Positions 5,366-49,224 of a DNA stretch of 64,000 nucleotides are shown piece after piece. The notes under the pieces were generated by a model. The model was not told the origin of the DNA, ran no database searches, and saw nothing but the letters and a program-made list of their open reading frames with translations. Made by a program: the position numbers and the translations under genes. Source of the stretch: a virus. Location: positions 39,398-103,397 of the IMG/VR virus record IMGVR_UViG_3300047160_006395. The stretch is one strand, 5' to 3'. Every line of letters starts with the position of its first letter. The stretch's first letter is position 1.

Positions 5366-6615
5366 CAGGTAAGCCCCCTCTGAGCAGGAATATAGATCCT
5401 CGAGTAGTCAGAAGGCAGCTCACCCCAGCCTGCTTCCAGGTTGGCCGAGATCTTGCGTTGCTGCACCCACTGCTTGTAGTCGGCCCAGATAGTAGCAGCG
5501 ACCTCTTCGTACTGCTGGGCCTTGGTGCCATGCTCATCGAATGAAACACCGCCGGCCGAATAAGCAACCTGGTTGCGGCGATGCCATTCGGCGGCCAGCC
5601 GGAAGAGCATGGCCTTGGCCCCTTGCTTCCACCAGTACCGATAGGGAAAGTTCTGGGTGGTGTAGCTGGGCGGAACTGGCGGCAATGCCTCGTTCCAGTA
5701 GTCAACGACACTGCGCAGCGCCGCAATGATCTCAGAGTTATCCCAGTACACCGAATCATCAAGCAGTTCACTCTCCAGCGGGGAGCTATCCCGCAGCTCC
5801 AGCCGCATCTCGGCAATCGAAGGTGGCCCGTGGTACTGGAAGGCGCCAAAGAGACTTTGCTCGACGACCAGGAAGAACTTGTTGCTGATGGCGACGCAGG
5901 TGCCTTCGGCATCAAAAACGCCCATCTCGGCGACGTAGATGCCAGGACCACCCAGCGCCGCAGGGTCGATGTCAGCAACCATCAACCCAGAAGATGGGTC
6001 ACTCGAGCTAGCTGCGAAGTCCTGGGAGTAGTTGTAGCAATCCGGCGCGATCCGCAACGTACCCATAACCAGGGCCTGGACACCGGCTTCACAGATGCTC
6101 AGGTCAACCGGACAACCCTGACCATCGACCATTGTCCAGGCGACCGACGGACATGGCGCAGCGCTGACAACGACGGTCTTGATACGCTGCGTAACGGGGA
6201 TCGTTTCGATCGTGGCGATGGTTGGCGAAGAAGGTGGCGTTTCACAAGGCTCGAGGATTGACCGCGGCGCCGCAATAGGTGGTGGGACAACGCGCACCCG
6301 CGGCCCGGCCCTGCGCGCTGGTTGAGCGGCCCGCTTTACAAGAGCGGCCGGACCAATGAGAACTGCACCCTGTTCGGGCGTAACCTCGAAAGCAACAGTC
6401 TGCGGGCTAGGCCCGCCTGTATCCCATACAAGCTGTCCGCGAAAGTGACTGGGATAGGCAATGGCTGCGCCGTACTGGCCGCTGCCCAGATCCTCGACGC
6501 CCTGAACAACCCTGGGACCAATTGGCTTGCCGGCTTTCACCAGCGTGTAGCCGATGGTCTTCAAACCGGCCTTGATCGGGCCGAAGTCAACTCTGGTATA
6601 GGGTTCAAATGCCAT
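5362..6615 (-). CDS. putative head-tail adaptor (neck) protein with N-terminal beta-rich domains
   Basis: 417 aa; C-terminal helical domain PSIAEMRLELRD...YWNEALPP...YSAGGVSFDE resembles adaptor proteins; AAGGAGG RBS. Confidence 0.5.
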   Translation of the reverse strand: MAFEPYTRVDFGPIKAGLKTIGYTLVKAGKPIGPRVVQGVEDLGSGQYGAAIAYPSHFRGQLVWDTGGPSPQTVAFEVTPEQGAVLIGPAALVKRAAQPARRAGPRVRVVPPPIAAPRSILEPCETPPSSPTIATIETIPVTQRIKTVVVSAAPCPSVAWTMVDGQGCPVDLSICEAGVQALVMGTLRIAPDCYNYSQDFAASSSDPSSGLMVADIDPAALGGPGIYVAEMGVFDAEGTCVAISNKFFLVVEQSLFGAFQYHGPPSIAEMRLELRDSSPLESELLDDSVYWDNSEIIAALRSVVDYWNEALPPVPPSYTTQNFPYRYWWKQGAKAMLFRLAAEWHRRNQVAYSAGGVSFDEHGTKAQQYEEVAATIWADYKQWVQQRKISANLEAGWGELPSDYSRIYIPAQRGLTW

Positions 6616-37777: not shown

Positions 37778-39772
37778 TCATACCGTCGAACCGCCATGCC
37801 AGATACCAGTCCGCACGCTAGCTGGCGTTTTGGGATGGAACTTGGGCATGTCGTCGTCGGCCATATTATCATCATCGTCGTCCCATGTATCCCCCCCAGG
37901 GTCCCAACCTTGAGTCAAGCCTTGCCGGCCGAAATGCGTGCGTTCAGCTAGGGCAGGAACGTAACTGGTACTGGCGATATCACTACTAGCACCCCGATGA
38001 GCCGCCTGCAAGGTAGCCTTCTCCAAACCTGAACCCAGATGTCGGGTCATCCAGTCAGGATCATGCTGAAGATTGTACATGCCCCGGACCATCGTTGGCT
38101 CGAACGGCGGCGGGGTGTCATGAACTTCCAGGTTGTTGACCCCGAATTCTTTGAGTTCGGGAATCATGCCCGGTCGGATCTTGGTACCGATACTGTGATG
38201 CAACACCGGGCGCTCAAGGTATTTACCCAGGGCCGACGACAAGCCAACCACTTTTGATCCAGGCCGCGGGGTCCAGTTCTTCTCGACGGTCGAGTACGGC
38301 ACGATGTCATCTTCAACATGATCACCGAACTCATCAGTAACCCGGACATGGTCGATCAGGCCCCGGGAGAGTAGCTCGACGTTTCGTCGGTGACTGCCCA
38401 TTCCTGAGCCCTTGAAGGCATCGCCGAATGCTTTGACGAAGTATCGGCGGCCCTCGCCGATGCCTTTGTGCTGGACCATCTCGGCGGGGTTGGGGATGCC
38501 GCCCGAAATAACATCGCCGGCCTCGACACTGTCGCCAACCTTGACGGTTGGATCAAGGCCATGCGGAACGTAGTGCTGCTGAGCACCGACCGAAACGTAC
38601 TTACCACCCTGGGGAGCGTCGGCGATTGTTGTGATCTTGCCGTCAATCTGGGCGTGGGTAGCTCCGCCTTTGAAGGTCTTGGGTACCTGGATCAGTTGGT
38701 TGATATGAGCGAATCCGGAGACTGCCTTGTCAGCGCCGGCGACGCCGCCGGTATGCCGGGCCGAAAGCTGGCCTTGCGAGAGCTTCTCAGACAGGGCCTG
38801 AGTTGCGGCCAGACCAACATAGTCGCCCAAGGGCGCCAGGCCACCACGTTCACGCACTCCGACATCTCGAGCATAGACACCGCCCTGCGGTGGTCCGCCG
38901 ATCATCGGTGATCGAACCAGGATGCGATTGAGCCCTTTGGTCTGGAGATCCTTGAGGATCTTGGGGGTCAGGACCGTGTTCCGCTTGTAGGGCCCGGCAG
39001 GATGGGCCAGCAAAGCTCCTTCGTTGTCAGGATCATCAGCCGTCGTTGGCAGCCCGCGGATCGATGACCTGTCTTCTTCCTCGGCATCATGGCCGGTAAC
39101 GACCAAGCGGTGACTGATCTGGTTGAGCTGCTTGGCCAGGAAGCCGGCTTCCTGGGTCGAGAACTTGGTGGCGGCAACACCCTTGCGAGCACCAAATGCA
39201 CTGGCCCAGTATTCGACTGGTGAAAGACCATGCGGGTAAGCGTGAAGGATCGGAACCGGGATCGGATTGTCATGATGATCAGCGTACATCAGGTCAGAGC
39301 CCAGGAGCGACTTCACGCTCAGCTTGCTACCTCGAGCGCCTGAGAGCACCTGATAAGCGAGTGGATTGCCGGCCTTCTTGGCCTCCTCGAAGACCGTGTC
39401 TTCCATCTCCTTGGTTCGCTCATGCAGTGCGGCAGTGATCGCATGCGCCTTTCGCTCATCGTCCATCCGGGTATCGGCCTGGATCATCTGGATGTGGCGG
39501 CGAAGCTGTTCCTTGATGCGCTCGCCAGCTGGGCTGGGCCGCAGATCTTCCAGGGAGGCAGAGTAACCACCTGTGGCATAGGCTGCATCACGGCCGACAT
39601 CGGAGAGCCGCTTGGCAATATCGCGGTACTTATCGGGATGTTTCTCGGCAATCTCCTGGAACAGCTTCTTGATGCCGCCGCCATCGAGAACGCGGGTATG
39701 GTCCCGCAACTCTTCAGGAAGAGCTTCGTTTATAGCCAGTTGCCCCAGCGTCGTTCTCAGCATCCGTGCCAC
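37778..39772 (-). CDS. rpoC: DNA-directed RNA polymerase beta' subunit, C-terminal part
   Basis: SGARGS; bridge helix EYW.SAFGARKG..ATK..T.EAG.L; trigger loop ATQALSEKLSQ..L...HTGG; HRRNVELL; the start may be ATG 39763. Confidence 0.9.
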   Translation of the reverse strand: MARMLRTTLGQLAINEALPEELRDHTRVLDGGGIKKLFQEIAEKHPDKYRDIAKRLSDVGRDAAYATGGYSASLEDLRPSPAGERIKEQLRRHIQMIQADTRMDDERKAHAITAALHERTKEMEDTVFEEAKKAGNPLAYQVLSGARGSKLSVKSLLGSDLMYADHHDNPIPVPILHAYPHGLSPVEYWASAFGARKGVAATKFSTQEAGFLAKQLNQISHRLVVTGHDAEEEDRSSIRGLPTTADDPDNEGALLAHPAGPYKRNTVLTPKILKDLQTKGLNRILVRSPMIGGPPQGGVYARDVGVRERGGLAPLGDYVGLAATQALSEKLSQGQLSARHTGGVAGADKAVSGFAHINQLIQVPKTFKGGATHAQIDGKITTIADAPQGGKYVSVGAQQHYVPHGLDPTVKVGDSVEAGDVISGGIPNPAEMVQHKGIGEGRRYFVKAFGDAFKGSGMGSHRRNVELLSRGLIDHVRVTDEFGDHVEDDIVPYSTVEKNWTPRPGSKVVGLSSALGKYLERPVLHHSIGTKIRPGMIPELKEFGVNNLEVHDTPPPFEPTMVRGMYNLQHDPDWMTRHLGSGLEKATLQAAHRGASSDIASTSYVPALAERTHFGRQGLTQGWDPGGDTWDDDDDNMADDDMPKFHPKTPASVRTGIWHGGSTV

Positions 39773-39776
39773 CTAA

Positions 39777-39805
39777 TAGCTAAAGAAAAGGGCAGGGCCC
39801 TTTTC
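39777..39805 (-). terminator. intrinsic terminator with TTTAGCTA tail
   Basis: GAAAAGGGC/GCCCTTTTC stem then TTTAGCTA. Confidence 0.65.
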
Positions 39806-39845
39806 CCACAGTGTATCACTGTGCGTTGCCACTTCAAACCATCCG

Positions 39846-40136
39846 TCATGCTGGCTTCTGCACAGCATTCGGAGGCGCGCCTTCTTTCAACATTAGGTTG
39901 CTTAACTTGTAAACGCCTATTGCCATCAATATCGCTGCGGAACGTCTAAACGTCCCAGGCTCGGCACCGCTGTTAATATAAAATGCCAAGCCCCATACGA
40001 CCACGTTGACCGTCAAGATCTGGGCAGCGAGTATCCATCGTTGCTGTCTAAGCGCGGTTATCGCCGGCCATCCGACATACGCCACCAAACCGACGACGAA
40101 GAGCACACCAACGAAGCTCATGAGCGAATCGAACAT
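39846..40136 (-). CDS. small membrane protein (about 3 TM), accessory cassette
   Basis: 96 aa hydrophobic; lower GC; has its own promoter and terminator. Confidence 0.7.
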   Translation of the reverse strand: MFDSLMSFVGVLFVVGLVAYVGWPAITALRQQRWILAAQILTVNVVVWGLAFYINSGAEPGTFRRSAAILMAIGVYKLSNLMLKEGAPPNAVQKPA

Positions 40137-40206
40137 TGTTTATTCCTTCCGGGCATCTAGCCCAATGGTCAGGGTGAAAACAGCCAGACATAGGCTGCCT
40201 TTCACT

Positions 40207-40237
40207 CTTGTATGACAAGGAAAAGCCCGAACTTTAG
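40207..40237 (-). promoter_or_regulatory. putative phage promoter CTAAAG-N15-GTCATACA
   Basis: minus strand reads CTAAAGttcgggcttttccttGTCATACAAG; very similar to 43290-43320. Confidence 0.7.
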
Positions 40238-40244
40238 CCCCGGA

Positions 40245-40295
40245 TAGCTAAAAAAAAGACCGGTACTGTGGGGCTCCGTCGCCCCGCAGTACCGG
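40245..40295 (-). terminator. intrinsic terminator with T8-AGCTA tail
   Basis: CCGGTACTG.GGGGC stem 40260-40295 then a T-run and AGCTA. Confidence 0.75.
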
Positions 40296-40328
40296 CCCTA
40301 ATCCAGCAAAGATGACAACAACGAGAGC

Positions 40329-41462
40329 TTATCGCCGCCGTCGCTTCCGCCGCCCCCTGCCTCTTCTCCGTCTTCTGCTCATCGGCTGCGAGTTAGCATC
40401 CGCGATCGCTTCCGCAACCGTGATCGGATCCTTGTAGATTGGCGTCATGACTACCGGCGAGTACGGTGATTCGCCCCTGACCCACGCGTGTATCGCATCC
40501 AAGGTCGGGGAAGACTTGGGGACCGACGTTCCGTTGACAACCAATCCCGGGCGTGTCGGTCCATGAGCTTTCAGCTCATTCGATACCGGCGCAGGCGGCG
40601 GCTCAGGAGAAGGAGGCGGCGGTTCCACAGGCGGCGGCTCCGGGGGAGCCTGATCAGAAGGCGGCAAGTCAACAGGCTTCTTTGCCCATCGACCGCCATG
40701 CACACCAGGCCCCTTCGGAGCTTTGTACGAATGCTGATTCTTATAGCGACCAGGATTCGCAAAACTCTCCCGATCTTCCGGGTCCTTGGCTCTGCTGCGG
40801 GCTCGAGACTCCTTCTTGGCCTTCGCGCGGTACGCTTTCTTCTCCTCTTCATTCATGCCGACCATGGCATTCCGCGTGATCGCAGCTCGGCGTGCCTGCA
40901 ATGACAGCAGTTTCTTTTCCTTTGGCACGGGCGCCGGCGCGTCTTCCACTGGTGGTGCGGCCGGCGGTGGTGGTGCCGCAGCTGGTGGCGCCTGTGGCGG
41001 CGGCGCGGCCGGTACAACTGGTGGCGGCATGGACTGACGCGCATGATCGGGCGTCGGCTTGGCTCGCGTCTCTCCGAGGGGCACATCCCATCTCTCGGAA
41101 GTCGCGGCTTCTCGCATACGCTCACGGGTACGTGAGGTATAGTTCGGGGTTTCCGGCAGGTCAGGAAACGGCTGGGCTACCAGCGGTTCCTGCGTCGCCG
41201 ATTGCGGCGGCTCCGGCGTGGGCATCGGTTTGGCTGGCTCCGGTACGGGCGCCGACTCCGCTTGAACATTAACGCCAGCATCCGGACCGGATGCCAAGAC
41301 CTGCTGTTCTTGCTGGTCAAAAACGAGTATCAGGTCCACAACGGTATCAGCTTCGATCTCGATCGAGCTGACCGCGATCTCACTATCTTTGAGCGAGACG
41401 CTTCGTAATTCGGAGCCATCGGCTCCGACGAGTCTGACACGGACATTTCGAGCCGCAGCCAT
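40329..41462 (-). CDS. Pro-rich, basic low-complexity accessory protein
   Basis: 377 aa; AAGGAG RBS; own promoter and terminator; Arg-rich C-terminus. Confidence 0.65.
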   Translation of the reverse strand: MAAARNVRVRLVGADGSELRSVSLKDSEIAVSSIEIEADTVVDLILVFDQQEQQVLASGPDAGVNVQAESAPVPEPAKPMPTPEPPQSATQEPLVAQPFPDLPETPNYTSRTRERMREAATSERWDVPLGETRAKPTPDHARQSMPPPVVPAAPPPQAPPAAAPPPPAAPPVEDAPAPVPKEKKLLSLQARRAAITRNAMVGMNEEEKKAYRAKAKKESRARSRAKDPEDRESFANPGRYKNQHSYKAPKGPGVHGGRWAKKPVDLPPSDQAPPEPPPVEPPPPSPEPPPAPVSNELKAHGPTRPGLVVNGTSVPKSSPTLDAIHAWVRGESPYSPVVMTPIYKDPITVAEAIADANSQPMSRRRRRGRGRRKRRRR

Positions 41463-41530
41463 TGGATACTCCTTTGTGCGGGCACGATGTTGTAGGTCAG
41501 GGCAGCATCAAACGTATAATGCTCCTCATC

Positions 41531-41562
41531 GATGTATGACACGAAATATCAGCTTCCTTTAG
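41531..41562 (-). promoter_or_regulatory. putative phage promoter CTAAAG-N16-GTCATACA
   Basis: minus strand reads GCTAAAGgaagctgatatttcgtGTCATACATC. Confidence 0.65.
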
Positions 41563-41620
41563 CTCATCCCTAACACCGAAAGTGAGAAAGTCAAGCTAGT
41601 AGGCAAGAGCGCACGGTGAG

Positions 41621-41680
41621 CTTGCTACGGTTTGCTACGGTTTGCTACGCCTTGTGTCGCTTCGTGTCGCTCACTGTCGC
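41621..41680. repeat. six phased 10-bp direct repeats (3x TTGCTACG, 3x TGTCGC)
   Basis: cttgctacgg tttgctacgg tttgctacgc cttgtgtcgc ttcgtgtcgc tcactgtcgc. Confidence 0.8.
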
Positions 41681-41697
41681 TAATTGGCACAGTTTGA

Positions 41698-41729
41698 TGG
41701 CTAAAAAAAGGGGTGAACGGCCCCCTTTT
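41698..41729 (-). terminator. intrinsic terminator with TTTAGCCA tail
   Basis: AAAAGGGG/CCCCTTTT stem then a T-run and AGCCA. Confidence 0.6.
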
Positions 41730-41732
41730 CCG

Positions 41733-42170
41733 CAGAGCATGGAAGCACCATGTTGCATGATCGGCTCGCTAGACCGATCGCCCTGTGGTCATGTTACAGG
41801 TAGCTTGGCCGTGGTTCTTCCACGGTTGAGCAACTGCCTCTGGGTATTTCGCCCATCGTAACGTGGGCGCGGACGCCGCCGTACCGGCACCTTCTCGCTA
41901 GTTCAAACTCACGTTCAACAATCACAGGAGGGAAGAAAAAGCCGGCGAGAGGACGTGAAGGGTGTTCCACCGACCGTCCCCACGCCGGCAACAGACACGA
42001 CTGAAGGAGTCGCCTCGCAGGGACGATTATCCGCGAGACTGGGGTAACATCCAGTACCCGTGAGCAGTCGTGCTGTGTAAGGCAGGGCGACCCACGACCG
42101 GCTCATGCAAACCGAAGTTGGTAGGCTTGGGCTTTTTGAACAGGAGCAGGTCGCCCTACACTTATATTTG
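41733..42170 (+). ncRNA. putative structured non-coding RNA (~440 nt), family unknown
   Basis: no credible ORF; series of stems with G-U pairs possible only in plus-strand sense; 9-bp long-range pairing 42084-42092 with 42149-42157. Confidence 0.55.
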
Positions 42171-42194
42171 ACGGGAAACGGGCCGAAGTTTAGT

Positions 42195-42449
42195 TCAAAC
42201 TTTCCAAGCAAAGTCTTCGATTCGCTTGGGTTTGAGCGTGTCGACTTTGACACGGTCGAGACCAAGGTTGGACAGGACCTGATTGAAGTTTGCGTCTTTC
42301 GCGTGGGCTACTGTGACGTGAGTTCCGTCGGGAGCGCCCACCCACTCCACGGCGACGGCCAGCGGTGTTCCGTTCGCGCTCTTGACAATCAAACGAGTGG
42401 CCGGGATAACCTGCGGCCGGCCCAGCCCGTCGATGATCTCCAGGATCAT
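42195..42449 (-). CDS. hypothetical protein
   Basis: 84 aa; ATGA overlap with the upstream gene. Confidence 0.65.
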   Translation of the reverse strand: MILEIIDGLGRPQVIPATRLIVKSANGTPLAVAVEWVGAPDGTHVTVAHAKDANFNQVLSNLGLDRVKVDTLKPKRIEDFAWKV

Positions 42450-43289: not shown

Positions 43290-43320
43290 CTAAAGTTCGA
43301 GCCATTTCTCGTCATATAAG
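43290..43320 (+). promoter_or_regulatory. putative phage promoter CTAAAG-N15-GTCATATA
   Basis: CTAAAGttcgagccatttctcGTCATATAAG, 60 nt upstream of the plus-strand gene. Confidence 0.7.
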
Positions 43321-43704: not shown

Positions 43705-46700
43705 TCAGCGATCCGCCACGATCTCGACCGGCTGATCGACGTTGATCTCGCCGCGACGATAAGCAGCCAGAGCATCGGCCTTGGTGGCAAAGACCCGCGG
43801 CCGCTTGTTGGATCGTGTGGATGACGCTGCATACAAACCAGCCGCATATTCTCTGGATGGTAATTGATGTGCCTTAAAAGAGCTAGTGCTCATTAGGTTG
43901 CGAGAAGGCAGCATCTTCTCGTAGGCGTCCCTGACCGCCTCGTCGGTGACCGGAACGTGGTACTGCATGGCATCGCCATCGAAGTCAGCACCGAAGCCGG
44001 TTACGATCATCGGCGAAACGTGCAGGGTCTCACCTTGCTCCAACCGGGGCCGGAAAGCCATGATCCCATACCGGTGATGCACCGGGGCCCGGTTGATGAT
44101 CACCGGCCGGGCATCCATCTCGGTCACCATGGCCTCGCGGGCCACCGGCTGGCGGTCTCTGACGGCCCGTACGGCGTCGATGCGGTTCATGCCACGTCGA
44201 ACCAGCCGGCGAACGATGAAAGGCTGGTAGACGTCCCAGGCCCTGTTCTCGGGCAAACCAACCTGGTCCATGTCGAGATCCGGGTTGGGCACGATCGTCG
44301 CTCGGCCGACCAGATCGGTCGCACTGGCCAGCAGCTTGCGCTGGACCATGCCCGTCTTGGGGCTGTTGCCAAAGATCTGCTTGAGCACGCCCCGAACGCC
44401 CCGCTCGCGATTCTTGGGATGCAGCGGATCACCCAGCCCGGTGACTGCCTTGAGGGCGCCGTAGTGGGCAGCCCGCTCTTCCGAGATGTCGCTAACCCGG
44501 CCCGACATGTCTTTGAGATTATCCCGGGCTTCGATAAGTTCCTTGTAGAGATAGTTGGCATCGGCAACCATGGGCAGCTTGCTGCCGGCCATTGTTGATA
44601 CGGGCCGGAAAACGGGCGGCAGCACTGGCGCCCGATCGAGCATCCAGTCACGAGGATGCAGCCCATGCTTCTGGGCTGTCTTCAGAAAGCCGAGCTTGCG
44701 CACGGCTGCGTCCCGCGCTCCCTTGCGACCAGAACGAATGTCAGCACGGGCTTCGTCGATCGCCTTGTCGATGTCAATCTTGTCCAGCGCCTTGGCGATG
44801 GCGTCAGGCCCGGTACGGCCGTTGAGCTGCTCCTTGCCGGTCATGACATCCATGAACTTATTCTGGGTTAGGCCCAGCATCCGGCGGATCGGCTCTTCCA
44901 TGACAGGATTGGGCAGCGGCTCGGCCAGCCTGATCGCCGACCATCTGTTACCGCCGTGTCCGCCCGTCAGCGCCTCATCGAATAGCCCGCCCTTGAGCGG
45001 CTTGAGCCCGGTCTTCCAGTCCACTGTATCGCCGTGTGCGATCTCGCGGTCGCCAGCCAGCTCGTTGACGTCGTTGTTCGATAGAGCCATGACATTCAGC
45101 TTGGTGCCCTTGCGAACCACGTTGATGCCGCCGGCCTTGAGCAGGTTCTGGAACTTGTCATAGATCATGGGCGTCTTGGGCGTCGGCATCGGCTGGCCCG
45201 CCATGAACTGCTGCCAGAATTCAGGGTGCGCCTGACCCCGGACGGCGCCGGCATCACGAAGCACCTCGGTGGCGCCATGTGATAGCAGGGCGTTGATGTC
45301 CATCAGGGAGATCCGCTTCGAGCCAGCTTCACCGCCACGGGCAGGAGCGCCTTCCGCAGTATATCCGCCCGTGCCACGGCCCTGGCCCTTCGACTCGCTG
45401 GTATGGTGCAGCTTCATGAACCAGCGGTTGCCAGTGAGGATGCGGGGGATGTCCCGGTTGGCAACTGGATCGTGGATCGTCTCGGCCGACTTCATACCGT
45501 TCTTGGTCAGTTCCTGGATGACCCACTCGGTATAGTTCCGGTCGTTGACAAAGTCAGGAACACGGTAGGGCTTGCCCGTCTTTTCAGCGATCTTGCCCAG
45601 AGCGGCTTCCATCTTCTGGGCCGGGTTCGCTCGAGTGATGATACCCAGCGGGTTCACGAGCACCTCGAAGGGCCGGCCCTGGCTATCGTGCGGCATCTTG
45701 TGATCCGGGACGATGGCCGCGACGACGCCTTTGTCGCCGTAACGCCCGGACATCTTGTCGCCAACCTCCATCGGGTTCAGGCTCTTGACTGAGACGACGA
45801 TGCCCTTGGCTGTCTTCTCGACATCGGTGACTTCACCCGGAGCGTGATGGTTCCAGGTCTCTGAATGATCGGCCCAGGATGCCGAGCGGCCGCGACTGAT
45901 GGCGCCGTGAGTTCGCTCTCGTTCCTTGACGGCCAGGATCAGCGGATCGCCGTGGTTGACGATCGTGCCCGGCTTGACCACACCCTCGTGGTCGATCGTG
46001 CTGAGCATGTTGCGGTCATACTTGCCAGGAAAGATCGAAACATGAGCGTGCTTGCCAGCCTTTATCCCTTCCTCCATGTCGAGCGAGTGCTGGTACATGT
46101 GCTCCGAAGACAACCGCTTGGCCATCGACTCGCTGATGACGGTCGCATCCTCGAAGTTGAGCCCGTGGTACGGGATGTAGGCTACGCGGGCATTCTGGCC
46201 CAAAGCAGCGACGCCCTTCTCATCGGTATAGTTGGACCGGGCCAGTAGATCACCAGGAGCAACCTTGTCTCCTACTCCGACTACAGGAGTCTGGTGTATA
46301 TAGGTCTTCCGGTTGTAGGGATAGTTCACGTATAGTTCGTGCGTGTGTACTTTCCCGTCGCTGCCCCGGATCTTGATGACCCCGTTGGCTTTGTCCACTG
46401 CCGTCACGGTGCCGCCGGTATCACTGTGCAGAGCACCCATGTAACGACCGTAGCGGGCTTCGTAGCTGTCGGTGTCGCTGCCCCTGACGCCAGCCTGCAC
46501 CAGTGGGGACTGTGGATCTTTCAGCGGCAGGGCCTGAGTGATCATACGGCCGGCCATGACCGCGCGCTGGGCCTTGCCGGTCGACTTGGCCGGAACCAGG
46601 TTGCCGATGGCGCTGAAGGCGTCGTCCATCGAGGGTAGTTCGTACTGTACCTGCGACCTCGGTACTTCGCGGATCTTGCCAGCAACCAGCGCCGAGACGT

Positions 46701-49224
46701 ATGGCTTGCTCGAGCGCAGCTCGCCCGGGAAAGAGATCGTTGCATCGGCCAGGTCCTGGGCACTACGGTACTCACGCTTTCCAGTCTTCACATTATGGAA
46801 TGGTGCGTAGAGCCGGCCATCATCGCCCTTCATCGTCGCCTGGGCTACCCGGCTATCGACGCCCACGTGGAGACTTTCAGGAGTAACCACTGGATCGATC
46901 AACCCGAAGTGCGACGGCTGGACGTTGCGACTTTCACTCGGGATCGCATCGAGCGAGTTGCCACACCAACAGGTCTTGCCATTACGACGGATGAAGAGCA
47001 GGCCGCCCGGAACCGAAGCACAATAGACCTTGCCGGTATAGTTGATCTCCTGATATTGATCGCACTTCTTTTGCCGCACCACCAACGCCTCATCGGCGGT
47101 ACGGATCATGACTTGGTATTGCGGCCGCTCGTCGGCTTTATACCGTGTCCTATAGGTTACGGCATAACCCAGCGTGATCGCCAGAAACCCGACCTGTTCG
47201 GCGAGCTGGCGCGAGGCGGATGCGTAGAGGCGTCGCGTCGGCAAGAAGCCACTATTATCCATCGTGGTGATCACATCGAAGAACCGGCGGCGCGATGCCG
47301 GCGATGCAGTCATAACATAGTCAGGCACGAACTTGGCGGCGGCCGTACCGAATTGACGCAAGTAATATGCCAGATGTTTACCTGAGATCTTGAACCGCCG
47401 ATCTTGCTCATAGTGATGAGTGAAGCCGAGGCGCATCAGCAAGTCGGCGATGAACCCGGCTTCGACCGGGTTTCGCGATCGCCGCTTATTGAGTTCAACA
47501 CGATAGTCACCCCGTCGATAAATGCTGTTACCATCAGCCAGGTAACACGCGAGAAATTCCAGCCAGTCATCGAATGGGACTGCGATCGGCGTTCTAACCG
47601 CTGTCCCACAGTTCTGGCCATCGGCCGGTGCCGGCTGGATCATAAAAACGGCCGGCGACTCTCCAAATGTTGCTTGTGCAGCCGCGATCTTGTGTCTCGC
47701 CCGTTTGCCATGGACCTGGTGCGCAGCCACAAACTCGAAGGGACGATCCATAGGCTCACGACCAACCGTTGTTGTCGGTCGCGAAACGTAGAGCCGGTGG
47801 TCAGGGGTCACGAGATAGTCGATACGATCAGTAACGCCGCGAAGCATCGGTCCAGCGTAGTCAGTGACGTGGAGTGACTCCGCCCGCGCAAAGAAAAGTC
47901 GACCATCATCGGTACGACAGGCGAAATTGTCGTCGAGTGTTACTGTGGGCCACGGCTTCCAACCCGCTGCGGTGAGAACCTCGGTATCACTGGAGTAACA
48001 CGGGATGCCGCCCATCCCGAGCCGACTGATCCTGGCTTGCTGATCGAAGATCATCGCAGGGTTGATACCTTCAGTCGGCTGCCCTAGCCCGCTGGACATG
48101 ATCGCCGCGTTGATCCCTCGAGTAAGCAGGTCGGGTTGAACGTGCTTCAGCCCTTCGGTCATGGACGCTTTCCAAAGGGTCTTGCCCAGGAGCATGCGAT
48201 CTTTGCCGACCCGTTCAGCCAGCAGGTCTTCAGGCCCCATCGCCGTCATGTAAGCCAGGTGGTCACGATCATCAGGCTCGGCTTCACCCTTGTTGATCGC
48301 CATCAGCTTCTTGGTGGTATCGAGCATCTGATCCAGGGAGACACGATCGTATGGCTTGCCCAGGGTTCGCTTGGTCACCTCGGGGTCGAGCCCCATCTGC
48401 TCGAACGATTCACGAACTTCTTGTTCTGGTGCCTTGTTCGGGTCGGGCTTGCGGACCATACGGTCATGCAGCTTACCGATGACCGATGGATCGTCCTTGA
48501 GCATGTTGGGCTGATAGAGATCGCCCCAGGCTTCCTGGAGCTGCTTATCACTGGCGCCCATGGCCCGAAGCACACCCGTCAGCGGCATCTTCGACTGACC
48601 CACCTTGAGCCGGAAGACGCCTGTCTCGGGCTCCATGAAAATACGGTGTGCCATGCCTTTGCCTGGCATCACGTTGACGTGGGCTTCCAGCTCGCCGTTA
48701 GACTGGATACGGGTATAGACGCCAGGCCGGAGCCGGAGCTGATGCGATAGGGTGTACTCGGTGCCGTTGTTGATGAACGTGCCGTGATCGGTCAGGTAAG
48801 GCACCGTAGCGACAGTGGATCGCTTCTTGTCGATGATCTTGCCAGTCTCGTTCTCTTTCAGCACCCAGGTGCCACGGAGTCTGGTCCCCAGACTGCGGCC
48901 ACCCAGGATAGCTTTTTTCCAGTCAGAGATTCCATGCTGAACAGCGCCTTCGTACCCGACATCTTCGAGAGTCAGGGTGTGCCGCTGATTGGTGACCGGT
49001 GGGATCTTGGAAGCTGCTTCCCGAACTCGATCTTGAATTCGGGCCCGGATCGCCGCCGAGTCGCCAAATGGCCGGAGGCCCGCCGGCGCATGGAGAGGCA
49101 TGGCCGGCGAGCGCGGAACGGGACGCTCTTTCGGTGTCCCATCGTGGATCTGCCCGTCACCATCACCGTCACGTGGAATGCCATGTAACGACCCAAGTGC
49201 AGACTGTGAAAGTACACTGGGCAT
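43705..49224 (-). CDS. rpoB: RNA polymerase beta subunit fused to the N-terminal half of beta' (catalytic), intein-containing
   Basis: beta motifs FINNG.E...QL, SHFGLIDP..TPE, GDKMSGRYGDKGVV, KLHH; beta' motifs PVLPP.FRP, NRAP..H, GADFDGD. Confidence 0.92.
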   Translation of the reverse strand: MPSVLSQSALGSLHGIPRDGDGDGQIHDGTPKERPVPRSPAMPLHAPAGLRPFGDSAAIRARIQDRVREAASKIPPVTNQRHTLTLEDVGYEGAVQHGISDWKKAILGGRSLGTRLRGTWVLKENETGKIIDKKRSTVATVPYLTDHGTFINNGTEYTLSHQLRLRPGVYTRIQSNGELEAHVNVMPGKGMAHRIFMEPETGVFRLKVGQSKMPLTGVLRAMGASDKQLQEAWGDLYQPNMLKDDPSVIGKLHDRMVRKPDPNKAPEQEVRESFEQMGLDPEVTKRTLGKPYDRVSLDQMLDTTKKLMAINKGEAEPDDRDHLAYMTAMGPEDLLAERVGKDRMLLGKTLWKASMTEGLKHVQPDLLTRGINAAIMSSGLGQPTEGINPAMIFDQQARISRLGMGGIPCYSSDTEVLTAAGWKPWPTVTLDDNFACRTDDGRLFFARAESLHVTDYAGPMLRGVTDRIDYLVTPDHRLYVSRPTTTVGREPMDRPFEFVAAHQVHGKRARHKIAAAQATFGESPAVFMIQPAPADGQNCGTAVRTPIAVPFDDWLEFLACYLADGNSIYRRGDYRVELNKRRSRNPVEAGFIADLLMRLGFTHHYEQDRRFKISGKHLAYYLRQFGTAAAKFVPDYVMTASPASRRRFFDVITTMDNSGFLPTRRLYASASRQLAEQVGFLAITLGYAVTYRTRYKADERPQYQVMIRTADEALVVRQKKCDQYQEINYTGKVYCASVPGGLLFIRRNGKTCWCGNSLDAIPSESRNVQPSHFGLIDPVVTPESLHVGVDSRVAQATMKGDDGRLYAPFHNVKTGKREYRSAQDLADATISFPGELRSSKPYVSALVAGKIREVPRSQVQYELPSMDDAFSAIGNLVPAKSTGKAQRAVMAGRMITQALPLKDPQSPLVQAGVRGSDTDSYEARYGRYMGALHSDTGGTVTAVDKANGVIKIRGSDGKVHTHELYVNYPYNRKTYIHQTPVVGVGDKVAPGDLLARSNYTDEKGVAALGQNARVAYIPYHGLNFEDATVISESMAKRLSSEHMYQHSLDMEEGIKAGKHAHVSIFPGKYDRNMLSTIDHEGVVKPGTIVNHGDPLILAVKERERTHGAISRGRSASWADHSETWNHHAPGEVTDVEKTAKGIVVSVKSLNPMEVGDKMSGRYGDKGVVAAIVPDHKMPHDSQGRPFEVLVNPLGIITRANPAQKMEAALGKIAEKTGKPYRVPDFVNDRNYTEWVIQELTKNGMKSAETIHDPVANRDIPRILTGNRWFMKLHHTSESKGQGRGTGGYTAEGAPARGGEAGSKRISLMDINALLSHGATEVLRDAGAVRGQAHPEFWQQFMAGQPMPTPKTPMIYDKFQNLLKAGGINVVRKGTKLNVMALSNNDVNELAGDREIAHGDTVDWKTGLKPLKGGLFDEALTGGHGGNRWSAIRLAEPLPNPVMEEPIRRMLGLTQNKFMDVMTGKEQLNGRTGPDAIAKALDKIDIDKAIDEARADIRSGRKGARDAAVRKLGFLKTAQKHGLHPRDWMLDRAPVLPPVFRPVSTMAGSKLPMVADANYLYKELIEARDNLKDMSGRVSDISEERAAHYGALKAVTGLGDPLHPKNRERGVRGVLKQIFGNSPKTGMVQRKLLASATDLVGRATIVPNPDLDMDQVGLPENRAWDVYQPFIVRRLVRRGMNRIDAVRAVRDRQPVAREAMVTEMDARPVIINRAPVHHRYGIMAFRPRLEQGETLHVSPMIVTGFGADFDGDAMQYHVPVTDEAVRDAYEKMLPSRNLMSTSSFKAHQLPSREYAAGLYAASSTRSNKRPRVFATKADALAAYRRGEINVDQPVEIVADR
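46957..48000 (-). mobile_element. intein (348 aa) with a LAGLIDADG-type endonuclease in RNAP beta
   Basis: GIP|CYSSDTEVLT...VTPDH...FLACYLADG...VYCASV...CWCGN|S. Confidence 0.88.

Follow-up and report, generated by a model that had tools for sequence, protein, structure and literature searches.

What kind of element occupies the ORF-poor gap between the two RNA polymerase genes of this virus? The window, meaning the whole stretch of 64,000 nucleotides analysed here, covers the 64 kb at the 3' end of a 103-kb IMG/VR record whose completeness is estimated at about 50%. Its source is an uncultured jumbo phage, and the nearest isolate-phage polymerase shares only 26% identity with its beta' C-half (beta'-C). 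The minus strand carries nearly all genes of the window, and the order between the polymerase genes on this strand is a 251-aa ORF, an 84-aa ORF, a gap of 727 nt, a 377-aa ORF and a 96-aa ORF, none of which has a match in Pfam or PHROG (Table 1). The stretch 41733–42170, which the original prediction described as an unannotated RNA of about 440 nt, antisense to the operon and with a probable pseudoknot, does lie between the beta/beta'-N and beta'-C genes as had been stated. For comparison we used two related viral contigs, IMGVR_UViG_3300047160_005727 (hereafter L002) and IMGVR_UViG_3300036846_000743.

The beta/beta'-N fusion itself has a match to the PHROG family "thymidylate synthase" (phrog_85, 2e-12) at residues 408–509 and a sub-threshold LAGLIDADG_3 match at residues 667–715. 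The region from residue 408 to 715 is possibly an inserted domain or the remnant of an intein.

The stretch is non-coding, unannotated, strongly structured and without a known RNA family. No start codon preceded by a Shine-Dalgarno sequence was found on its sense strand, and the ORFs overlapping it have no Pfam match. Translated comparison with L002 gave matches of 8–14 residues in mixed frames, while the adjacent 84-aa gene is matched in frame at E = 9e-45. A small protein, the 63-aa ORF from 42106, was rejected, as it has neither a ribosome-binding site nor a counterpart in L002.

The covariance search with Rfam 15 (4227 models, including 6S, RNase P, tmRNA, group I/II introns, riboswitches, tracrRNA, pRNA, GOLLD and ROOL) gave no match at gathering score in the whole window. 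In the local search the best matches reached 10–17 bits (E 5.8–8.3), and L002 reached 14 bits (E 8.9). ARAGORN found no tRNA or tmRNA gene in the window and no intron model of Rfam matched, in agreement with the original prediction, which could not match the stretch to the hallmarks of these RNAs. A group I/II intron is also rejected by the island-free relative, in which beta'-N and beta'-C are separate genes with two other genes between them. A retron msr-msd was rejected because the neighbouring ORFs contain no RT or other Pfam/PHROG domain, and a Type III toxin-antitoxin (ToxI) because the module is single in the window, the RNA has no short tandem array and the downstream ORFs have no Pfam match. 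The 6S, riboswitch and T-box families are ruled out by Rfam together with the gene context.

The four consecutive hairpins named in the original prediction (41737–41753, 41759–41779, 41782–41800 and 41803–41831) are all present, and so are the CAGAG/CTCTG enclosure (41733–41737 and 41838–41842), the stems within 42061–42105 and the perfect 9-nt complement between 42084–42092 and 42149–42157 (inverted repeat I7). The whole stretch folds beyond shuffled sequences on both strands, with minimum free energies (MFE) of -183.6 kcal/mol on the plus strand and -183.3 kcal/mol on the minus strand (z -4.67 and -4.63; 0 of 100 shuffles equal). This signal is concentrated in 41935–42165, where the minus strand reaches -113.9 kcal/mol (z -7.23) with a centroid fold identical to the MFE fold, compared with z -3.9 on the plus strand. 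Taken by itself, the 3' part is thermodynamically unremarkable (z -1.3 to -2.7).

When 1387 windows of 230 nt were scanned, the best-placed RNA window on the minus strand has a GC-corrected residual of -32 kcal/mol and ties with the most extreme window of the grid, while the residual of its plus strand is only -20 kcal/mol. Over all 64 kb, structure on the minus strand peaks in the 230-nt window 40113–40342, which spans the long T2 hairpin 3' of the 377-aa ORF and the next promoter box. The element 41733–42170 is single-copy in the 103-kb record.

On which strand would such an RNA be made? A promoter-like bipartite box lies on the minus strand ahead of the stretch, with two mismatches to CTAAAG-N15-GTCATAYA; the consensus of the box family is CTAAAG-N15/16-GTCATAYA. 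Its N15 form, with at most two mismatches, occurs at three sites in the window against 0.23 expected, and 0 of 100 shuffles reach three. Nine box sites exist in the 103-kb record, seven of them perfect, and a perfect box stands at the same place in L002 (5003–5034). Every box directly precedes a 5' hairpin, and by its predicted fold H1 is an enlarged version of this box-adjacent hairpin. At the other end, the U tract of the terminator on the minus strand is 7–10 nt long in all three homologous copies (U7 in T1; U-rich tails of 9–10 nt in the L002 copies), against 2–5 nt on the other strand.

The promoter-like box and terminator T1 thus bracket the unit on the minus strand, which is the operon strand, contrary to the proposal of an antisense RNA; the strand had probably been called wrongly, and the unit would have the same sense as the genes. 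On the plus strand, neither a promoter-like box nor a sigma-70-like site was found upstream of the RNA (near 41500–41735), and there is no terminator near 42170; the T1 hairpin, which is roughly symmetrical, would precede a plus-strand RNA and not end it.

The argument from G-U pairs had pointed to the plus strand, and it stands for part of the stretch. The hairpins 41782–41800 and 41803–41831 hold five G-U pairs unique to the plus strand, the latter hairpin with 12 bp, three of them G-U (-18.7 kcal/mol on plus against -11.5 on minus), and 41700–41831 of the window is 6 kcal/mol stabler on that strand. The argument fails for the 5' half, where the minus strand has eight G-U pairs and an advantage of 12 kcal/mol over the plus strand. 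In L002, hairpins 1 and 2 wobble on the operon strand, with three G-U pairs against one A-C in the window. The consensus fold of the same alignment gives -30.8 kcal/mol for sense and -28.7 for antisense, and -22.7 against -25.1 without the terminator, which is near neutral. Energetically, neither strand is favoured by the conserved 3' module.

Nor is the proposed pseudoknot required. In both the MFE and the centroid fold, the 9-nt complement and its extension form the basal helix of H1, one nested hairpin, while GTCGTG pairs elsewhere. A plus-strand RNA with a pseudoknot, to which the promoter search, the terminators, the L002 wobble pairs, the 5' half and these folds are all opposed, is thus very improbable.

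Table 1. Features of the gap and of its surroundings, listed in minus-strand order (positions refer to the window).
Feature	Position	Strand	Remarks
Beta + beta' N-half ORF	43705–49224	minus	Pfam Rpb2_6 2e-48, Rpb1_2 2e-20; beta motifs first
Box before one plus-strand ORF	43290–43318		
84-aa ORF	42195–42449	minus	stop codon 42195–42197
Promoter-like bipartite box, CTAAAC-N15-GTCAAATA	42165–42193	minus	directly 3' of the stop codon of the 84-aa ORF
H1, 87-nt long hairpin at predicted 5' end	42078–42164	minus	-44.0 kcal/mol on minus, -34.9 on plus
H2, branched three-way domain	41991–42076	minus	MFE and centroid folds identical
H3, G+C-rich hairpin (41941–41989), then UUUUUCUU	41935–41989	minus	-31.9 kcal/mol; inverted repeat I3
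Linker, weakly structured, not conserved	41832–41934	minus	z +0.5 on minus, -0.4 on plus; no alignable similarity to L002
Conserved 3' module, hairpins 0–3	41733–41831	minus	covariance model R1, 114 bits; joint UCAUGCAAC between hairpins 2 and 3
Hairpin 0	41803–41831	minus	
Hairpin 1	41782–41800	minus	
Hairpin 2	41759–41779	minus	
Hairpin 3	41733–41757	minus	closed by GCA/UGC
Intrinsic terminator T1	41700–41732	minus	GGAAAAGGGGG, loop, CCCC, U7, tail AGC; -13.6 kcal/mol
Box before 377-aa ORF	41533–41562		
377-aa ORF	40329–41462	minus	Pro-rich, very basic
Box before 96-aa ORF	40209–40237		
96-aa ORF	39846–40136	minus	membrane-like
Terminator T3	39783–39809	minus	about 10 nt upstream of beta'-C start (39772); no box between
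Beta' C-half ORF (beta'-C)	37778–39772	minus	Pfam Rpb1_5 9e-17

Read on the minus strand, the unit consists of a compact 5' part of three domains (H1 to H3), a loose linker and a 3' module that ends in T1. Judging from its shape only, H3 followed by UUUUUCUU could act as an internal terminator, in which case a short form of about 225 nt would result. We dismissed an 8-bp complement linking H1 to the joint of the module (I2), as it is at chance level (about 1.6 expected by estimate). We also noted that 11 nt (AGTTTGAACTA when read on the minus strand) are repeated directly and exactly at 42191–42201 and 41899–41909; this repeat flanks the promoter box and the lineage-specific 5' domain; at the equivalent places L002 has a looser repeat, CGGGTTT(G)AGC. 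This repeat may be the trace of an insertion or recombination.

Within the unit, conservation is confined to the 3' 115 nt, with three hairpins and the terminator. In L002 the 84-aa gene and the perfect box are followed by an ORF-free gap of 840 nt with two terminators. DNA similarity between the window and L002 amounts to 72% in the genes on either side, breaks off at the box and is found again only within the final 115 nt ahead of each terminator. L002 thus has this 115-nt module twice in tandem, at the position that it occupies in the window. Its 5' part has no similarity to the window and folds no better than shuffles (z -1.3).

We built a covariance model (R1) from the three copies, one from the window and two from L002, and the tandem L002 copies score 111 and 120 bits with it. 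The three-copy alignment has 94% of its cells in pairs. Of the 29 pairs, 11 differ on both sides, a number reached by 0 of 500 shuffles and compared with 0–4 pairs in slid controls. This comparison covers the 3' 115 nt, and its covariation statistics are weak, since the three copies come from two lineages and two of them are paralogues in one genome. The conserved single-stranded parts of the module are the joint CA(U/A)GC(A/G)AC and GCGGAA.

Apart from these copies, R1 matches one metagenome contig that is 99.9% identical and, weakly, 39779–39863 of the window (16.8 bits), where hairpin 3 with its terminator recurs at T3, after the 96-aa ORF. Part of the 3' module may therefore be a generic terminator design.

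The search for further homologues was carried out in several ways. A pattern scan of IMG/VR with the module joint gave 64 loci, which were screened with R1 and were only the known relative or chance; scans with the promoter box and with hairpin 3 plus GCGGAA likewise gave only the known relative or chance matches. Matches to the basal helix of H1 in IMG/VR were rejected as an unrelated coding family. Among 108 loci from a pattern scan of genome contigs, none exceeded 17 bits with R1, and the DNA search of isolate phages gave a single chance match of 36 nt. Guided by the neighbouring 377-aa, 251-aa and 84-aa proteins, we found only the two related viral contigs and two short metagenome contigs. 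At the protein level, homologues of the 251-aa gene exist in at least seven further lineages, on contigs of up to 231 kb.

The second relative, IMGVR_UViG_3300036846_000743, is 226 kb long and 100% complete, and its beta'-C is 75% identical to that of the window. There beta'-C begins 10 nt after the 84-aa gene, and R1 has no match anywhere in this genome; the island-free stretch corresponds to L070 5795–6062. What is missing from it is an island of 2.4 kb, from 42189 to 39773 of the window, between the 84-aa gene and beta'-C, which contains the RNA unit, 10-bp repeats and the 377-aa and 96-aa ORFs as promoter-to-terminator cassettes. The island shares with L002 only the RNA and the basic protein. 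Since the RNA belongs to this accessory island, it would be dispensable for the core of the phage.

The basic protein of the island, encoded by the 377-aa ORF, has a C-terminal Arg/Lys run, a disordered look and no family match, and its homologue in L002 (6502–7434) is weak (E = 1e-6). An array of 10-bp repeats stands just before the promoter box of its gene in both phages (41618–41680 in the window; 6262–6375 in L002). In L002 a 15-bp inverted repeat, with a T tract behind it, has six GCAAGCGACW units in its loop, and GTGAGC/GCTCAC encloses the repeats of the window. The 9-mer CAAGCGACA of this array recurs in the joint of L002 module B (5612–5620). A link between the RNA and these repeats as an origin was rejected, because the repeats accompany the basic-protein gene and not the RNA.

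A cis-acting leader of the next gene was rejected as well. T1 and a new box precede the 377-aa ORF in the window, and two terminators and a box stand before the next ORF in L002, so that in both phages a terminator and a fresh promoter separate the RNA from the next gene.

With moderate confidence, we read the locus as a self-contained, non-essential promoter-to-terminator unit on the minus strand for a non-coding RNA of an undescribed family, most likely a trans-acting accessory RNA. The observations behind this reading are the strong fold, the missing coding capacity, the signals at both ends, the partial conservation with compensatory changes and the absence from a close relative. From the sequence we infer transcription, RNA ends, two size forms and a function as follows. 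The box would start the RNA at about 42160, and the 5' 225 nt would fold into the three very stable domains H1 to H3. H3 and its U tract may end the short form of about 225 nt. Read-through past H3 would add the loose linker and the conserved 115-nt module of three to four hairpins, and T1 would set the 3' end at about 41703, giving a full form of about 460 nt. The product would be a stable accessory RNA that acts in trans and is expressed along with the other genes of the cassettes. Its target could be a host or phage protein or RNA, and its role that of a decoy, a sponge or a base-pairing regulator.

Several observations count against this preferred reading. Homologues come from two lineages only, and for the 5' half none could be detected in L002. 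Two mismatches occur in the box ahead of the RNA, and the 3' module is 6 kcal/mol stabler on the plus strand. Hairpin 3 with a terminator also follows the 96-aa ORF. Within the phage's own genome, the search for base-pairing targets found 35 complementary 11-mers compared with 27.6 in shuffles, which is not above chance.

The alternative that survives best is cis-acting punctuation, in which a multi-hairpin terminator or insulator, possibly responsive to a protein, stops transcription from beta/beta'-N or tunes read-through to beta'-C, while the RNA itself has no job. We consider this rather unlikely. A terminator closes the module in every case, L002 has the module as a tandem duplication, H3 is an additional terminator-like hairpin, and hairpin 3 with a terminator recurs at T3, about 10 nt before the start of beta'-C. 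Moreover, the joint motif of L002 module B (CAAGCGACA) is identical to the 10-bp repeat unit that precedes the basic-protein gene, which hints at a shared binding protein. Beta'-C of the window phage stands behind three or four intrinsic terminators, and its expression seems to need read-through, because T3 precedes it without an intervening box; L002 has no terminator at the place of T3. However, a dedicated upstream promoter-like box, kept in both phages, would be hard to explain in a mere stop signal. Compensatory changes have preserved the pairing of hairpins 1 and 2, though termination does not need them, and the structure of the 225-nt 5' domain goes far beyond the needs of a terminator.

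It is unlikely, and more so than punctuation, that the gap holds a decayed or DNA-level element, either a cassette that lost its ORF or palindromic DNA (sites for protein binding or recombination) that mimics a structured RNA. Such an element would fit the folding of both strands beyond shuffles, the lineage-specific 5' half, the 11-nt direct repeat around the promoter and 5' domain, and the variation of the island between relatives. It is opposed by the clear preference of the 5' half for the minus strand in both G-U pairs and energy, by the single copy of the element in the record, by the compensatory changes that kept the helices of the module and by the lack of any remaining trace of a coding frame.

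A bolder version, in which the RNA or its 3' module founds a new class of regulatory RNA in jumbo phages, seems to us improbable. The RNA would then bind a polymerase or an RNA-binding protein, set termination or read-through across the island and control beta'-C, or it would serve as a decoy for a host factor. In its current status, the locus is a candidate with clear limits and a revised strand; it falls short of a demonstrated new RNA class. Hardly anything has been explored of the non-coding RNAs in jumbo phages that encode multisubunit polymerases of their own. If real, a dedicated and strongly folded RNA gene inside the polymerase cluster, acquired along with further accessory cassettes, would be a handle on the organisation of early transcription, on how phages cope with terminators ahead of an essential polymerase gene and on the RNA tools used against the host.

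Among known systems, the put RNA of HK022 is a cis-acting two-hairpin antiterminator. The window resembles it in having adjacent short hairpins upstream of terminators, with essential genes beyond several terminators, but there is no sequence relation and the module of the window includes its own terminator. ToxI is the antitoxin RNA of a Type III toxin-antitoxin system, with a repeat of about 36 nt and a gene for a ToxN-family endoribonuclease. The order of promoter, repeated RNA, terminator and ORF in L002 is similar, whereas the repeat unit there is about 240 nt and is single in the window, and the ORFs that follow are different in the two phages, with no match to ToxN-like or other Pfam families. 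GOLLD, ROOL and phi29 pRNA, all contained in Rfam, are likewise large, highly structured and phage-borne; unlike them, the RNA of the window matches none of the 4227 Rfam models, and it is smaller than GOLLD or ROOL.

Viral single-guide RNAs (vsgRNA) are reported to be compact multi-hairpin phage RNAs that end in a terminator (bioRxiv 10.64898/2026.06.01.729453). The RNA of the window lacks a long repeat:anti-repeat duplex and has no match to the tracrRNA models of Rfam, but it may share with them its compactness, its several hairpins and its terminator end.

Phage non-coding RNAs with their own promoter and intrinsic terminator include lambda OOP, P22 Sar and prophage anti-sRNAs such as AgvB (PMC4104026; review PMC12197685). 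Compared with these, the RNA of the window would be much longer (225 or 460 nt) and more structured, it has no sequence or Rfam relationship to them, and no target complementarity was found for it in the phage genome. Like them, it would be an independent ORF-free unit with a Rho-independent terminator at its end, located among accessory genes and dispensable.
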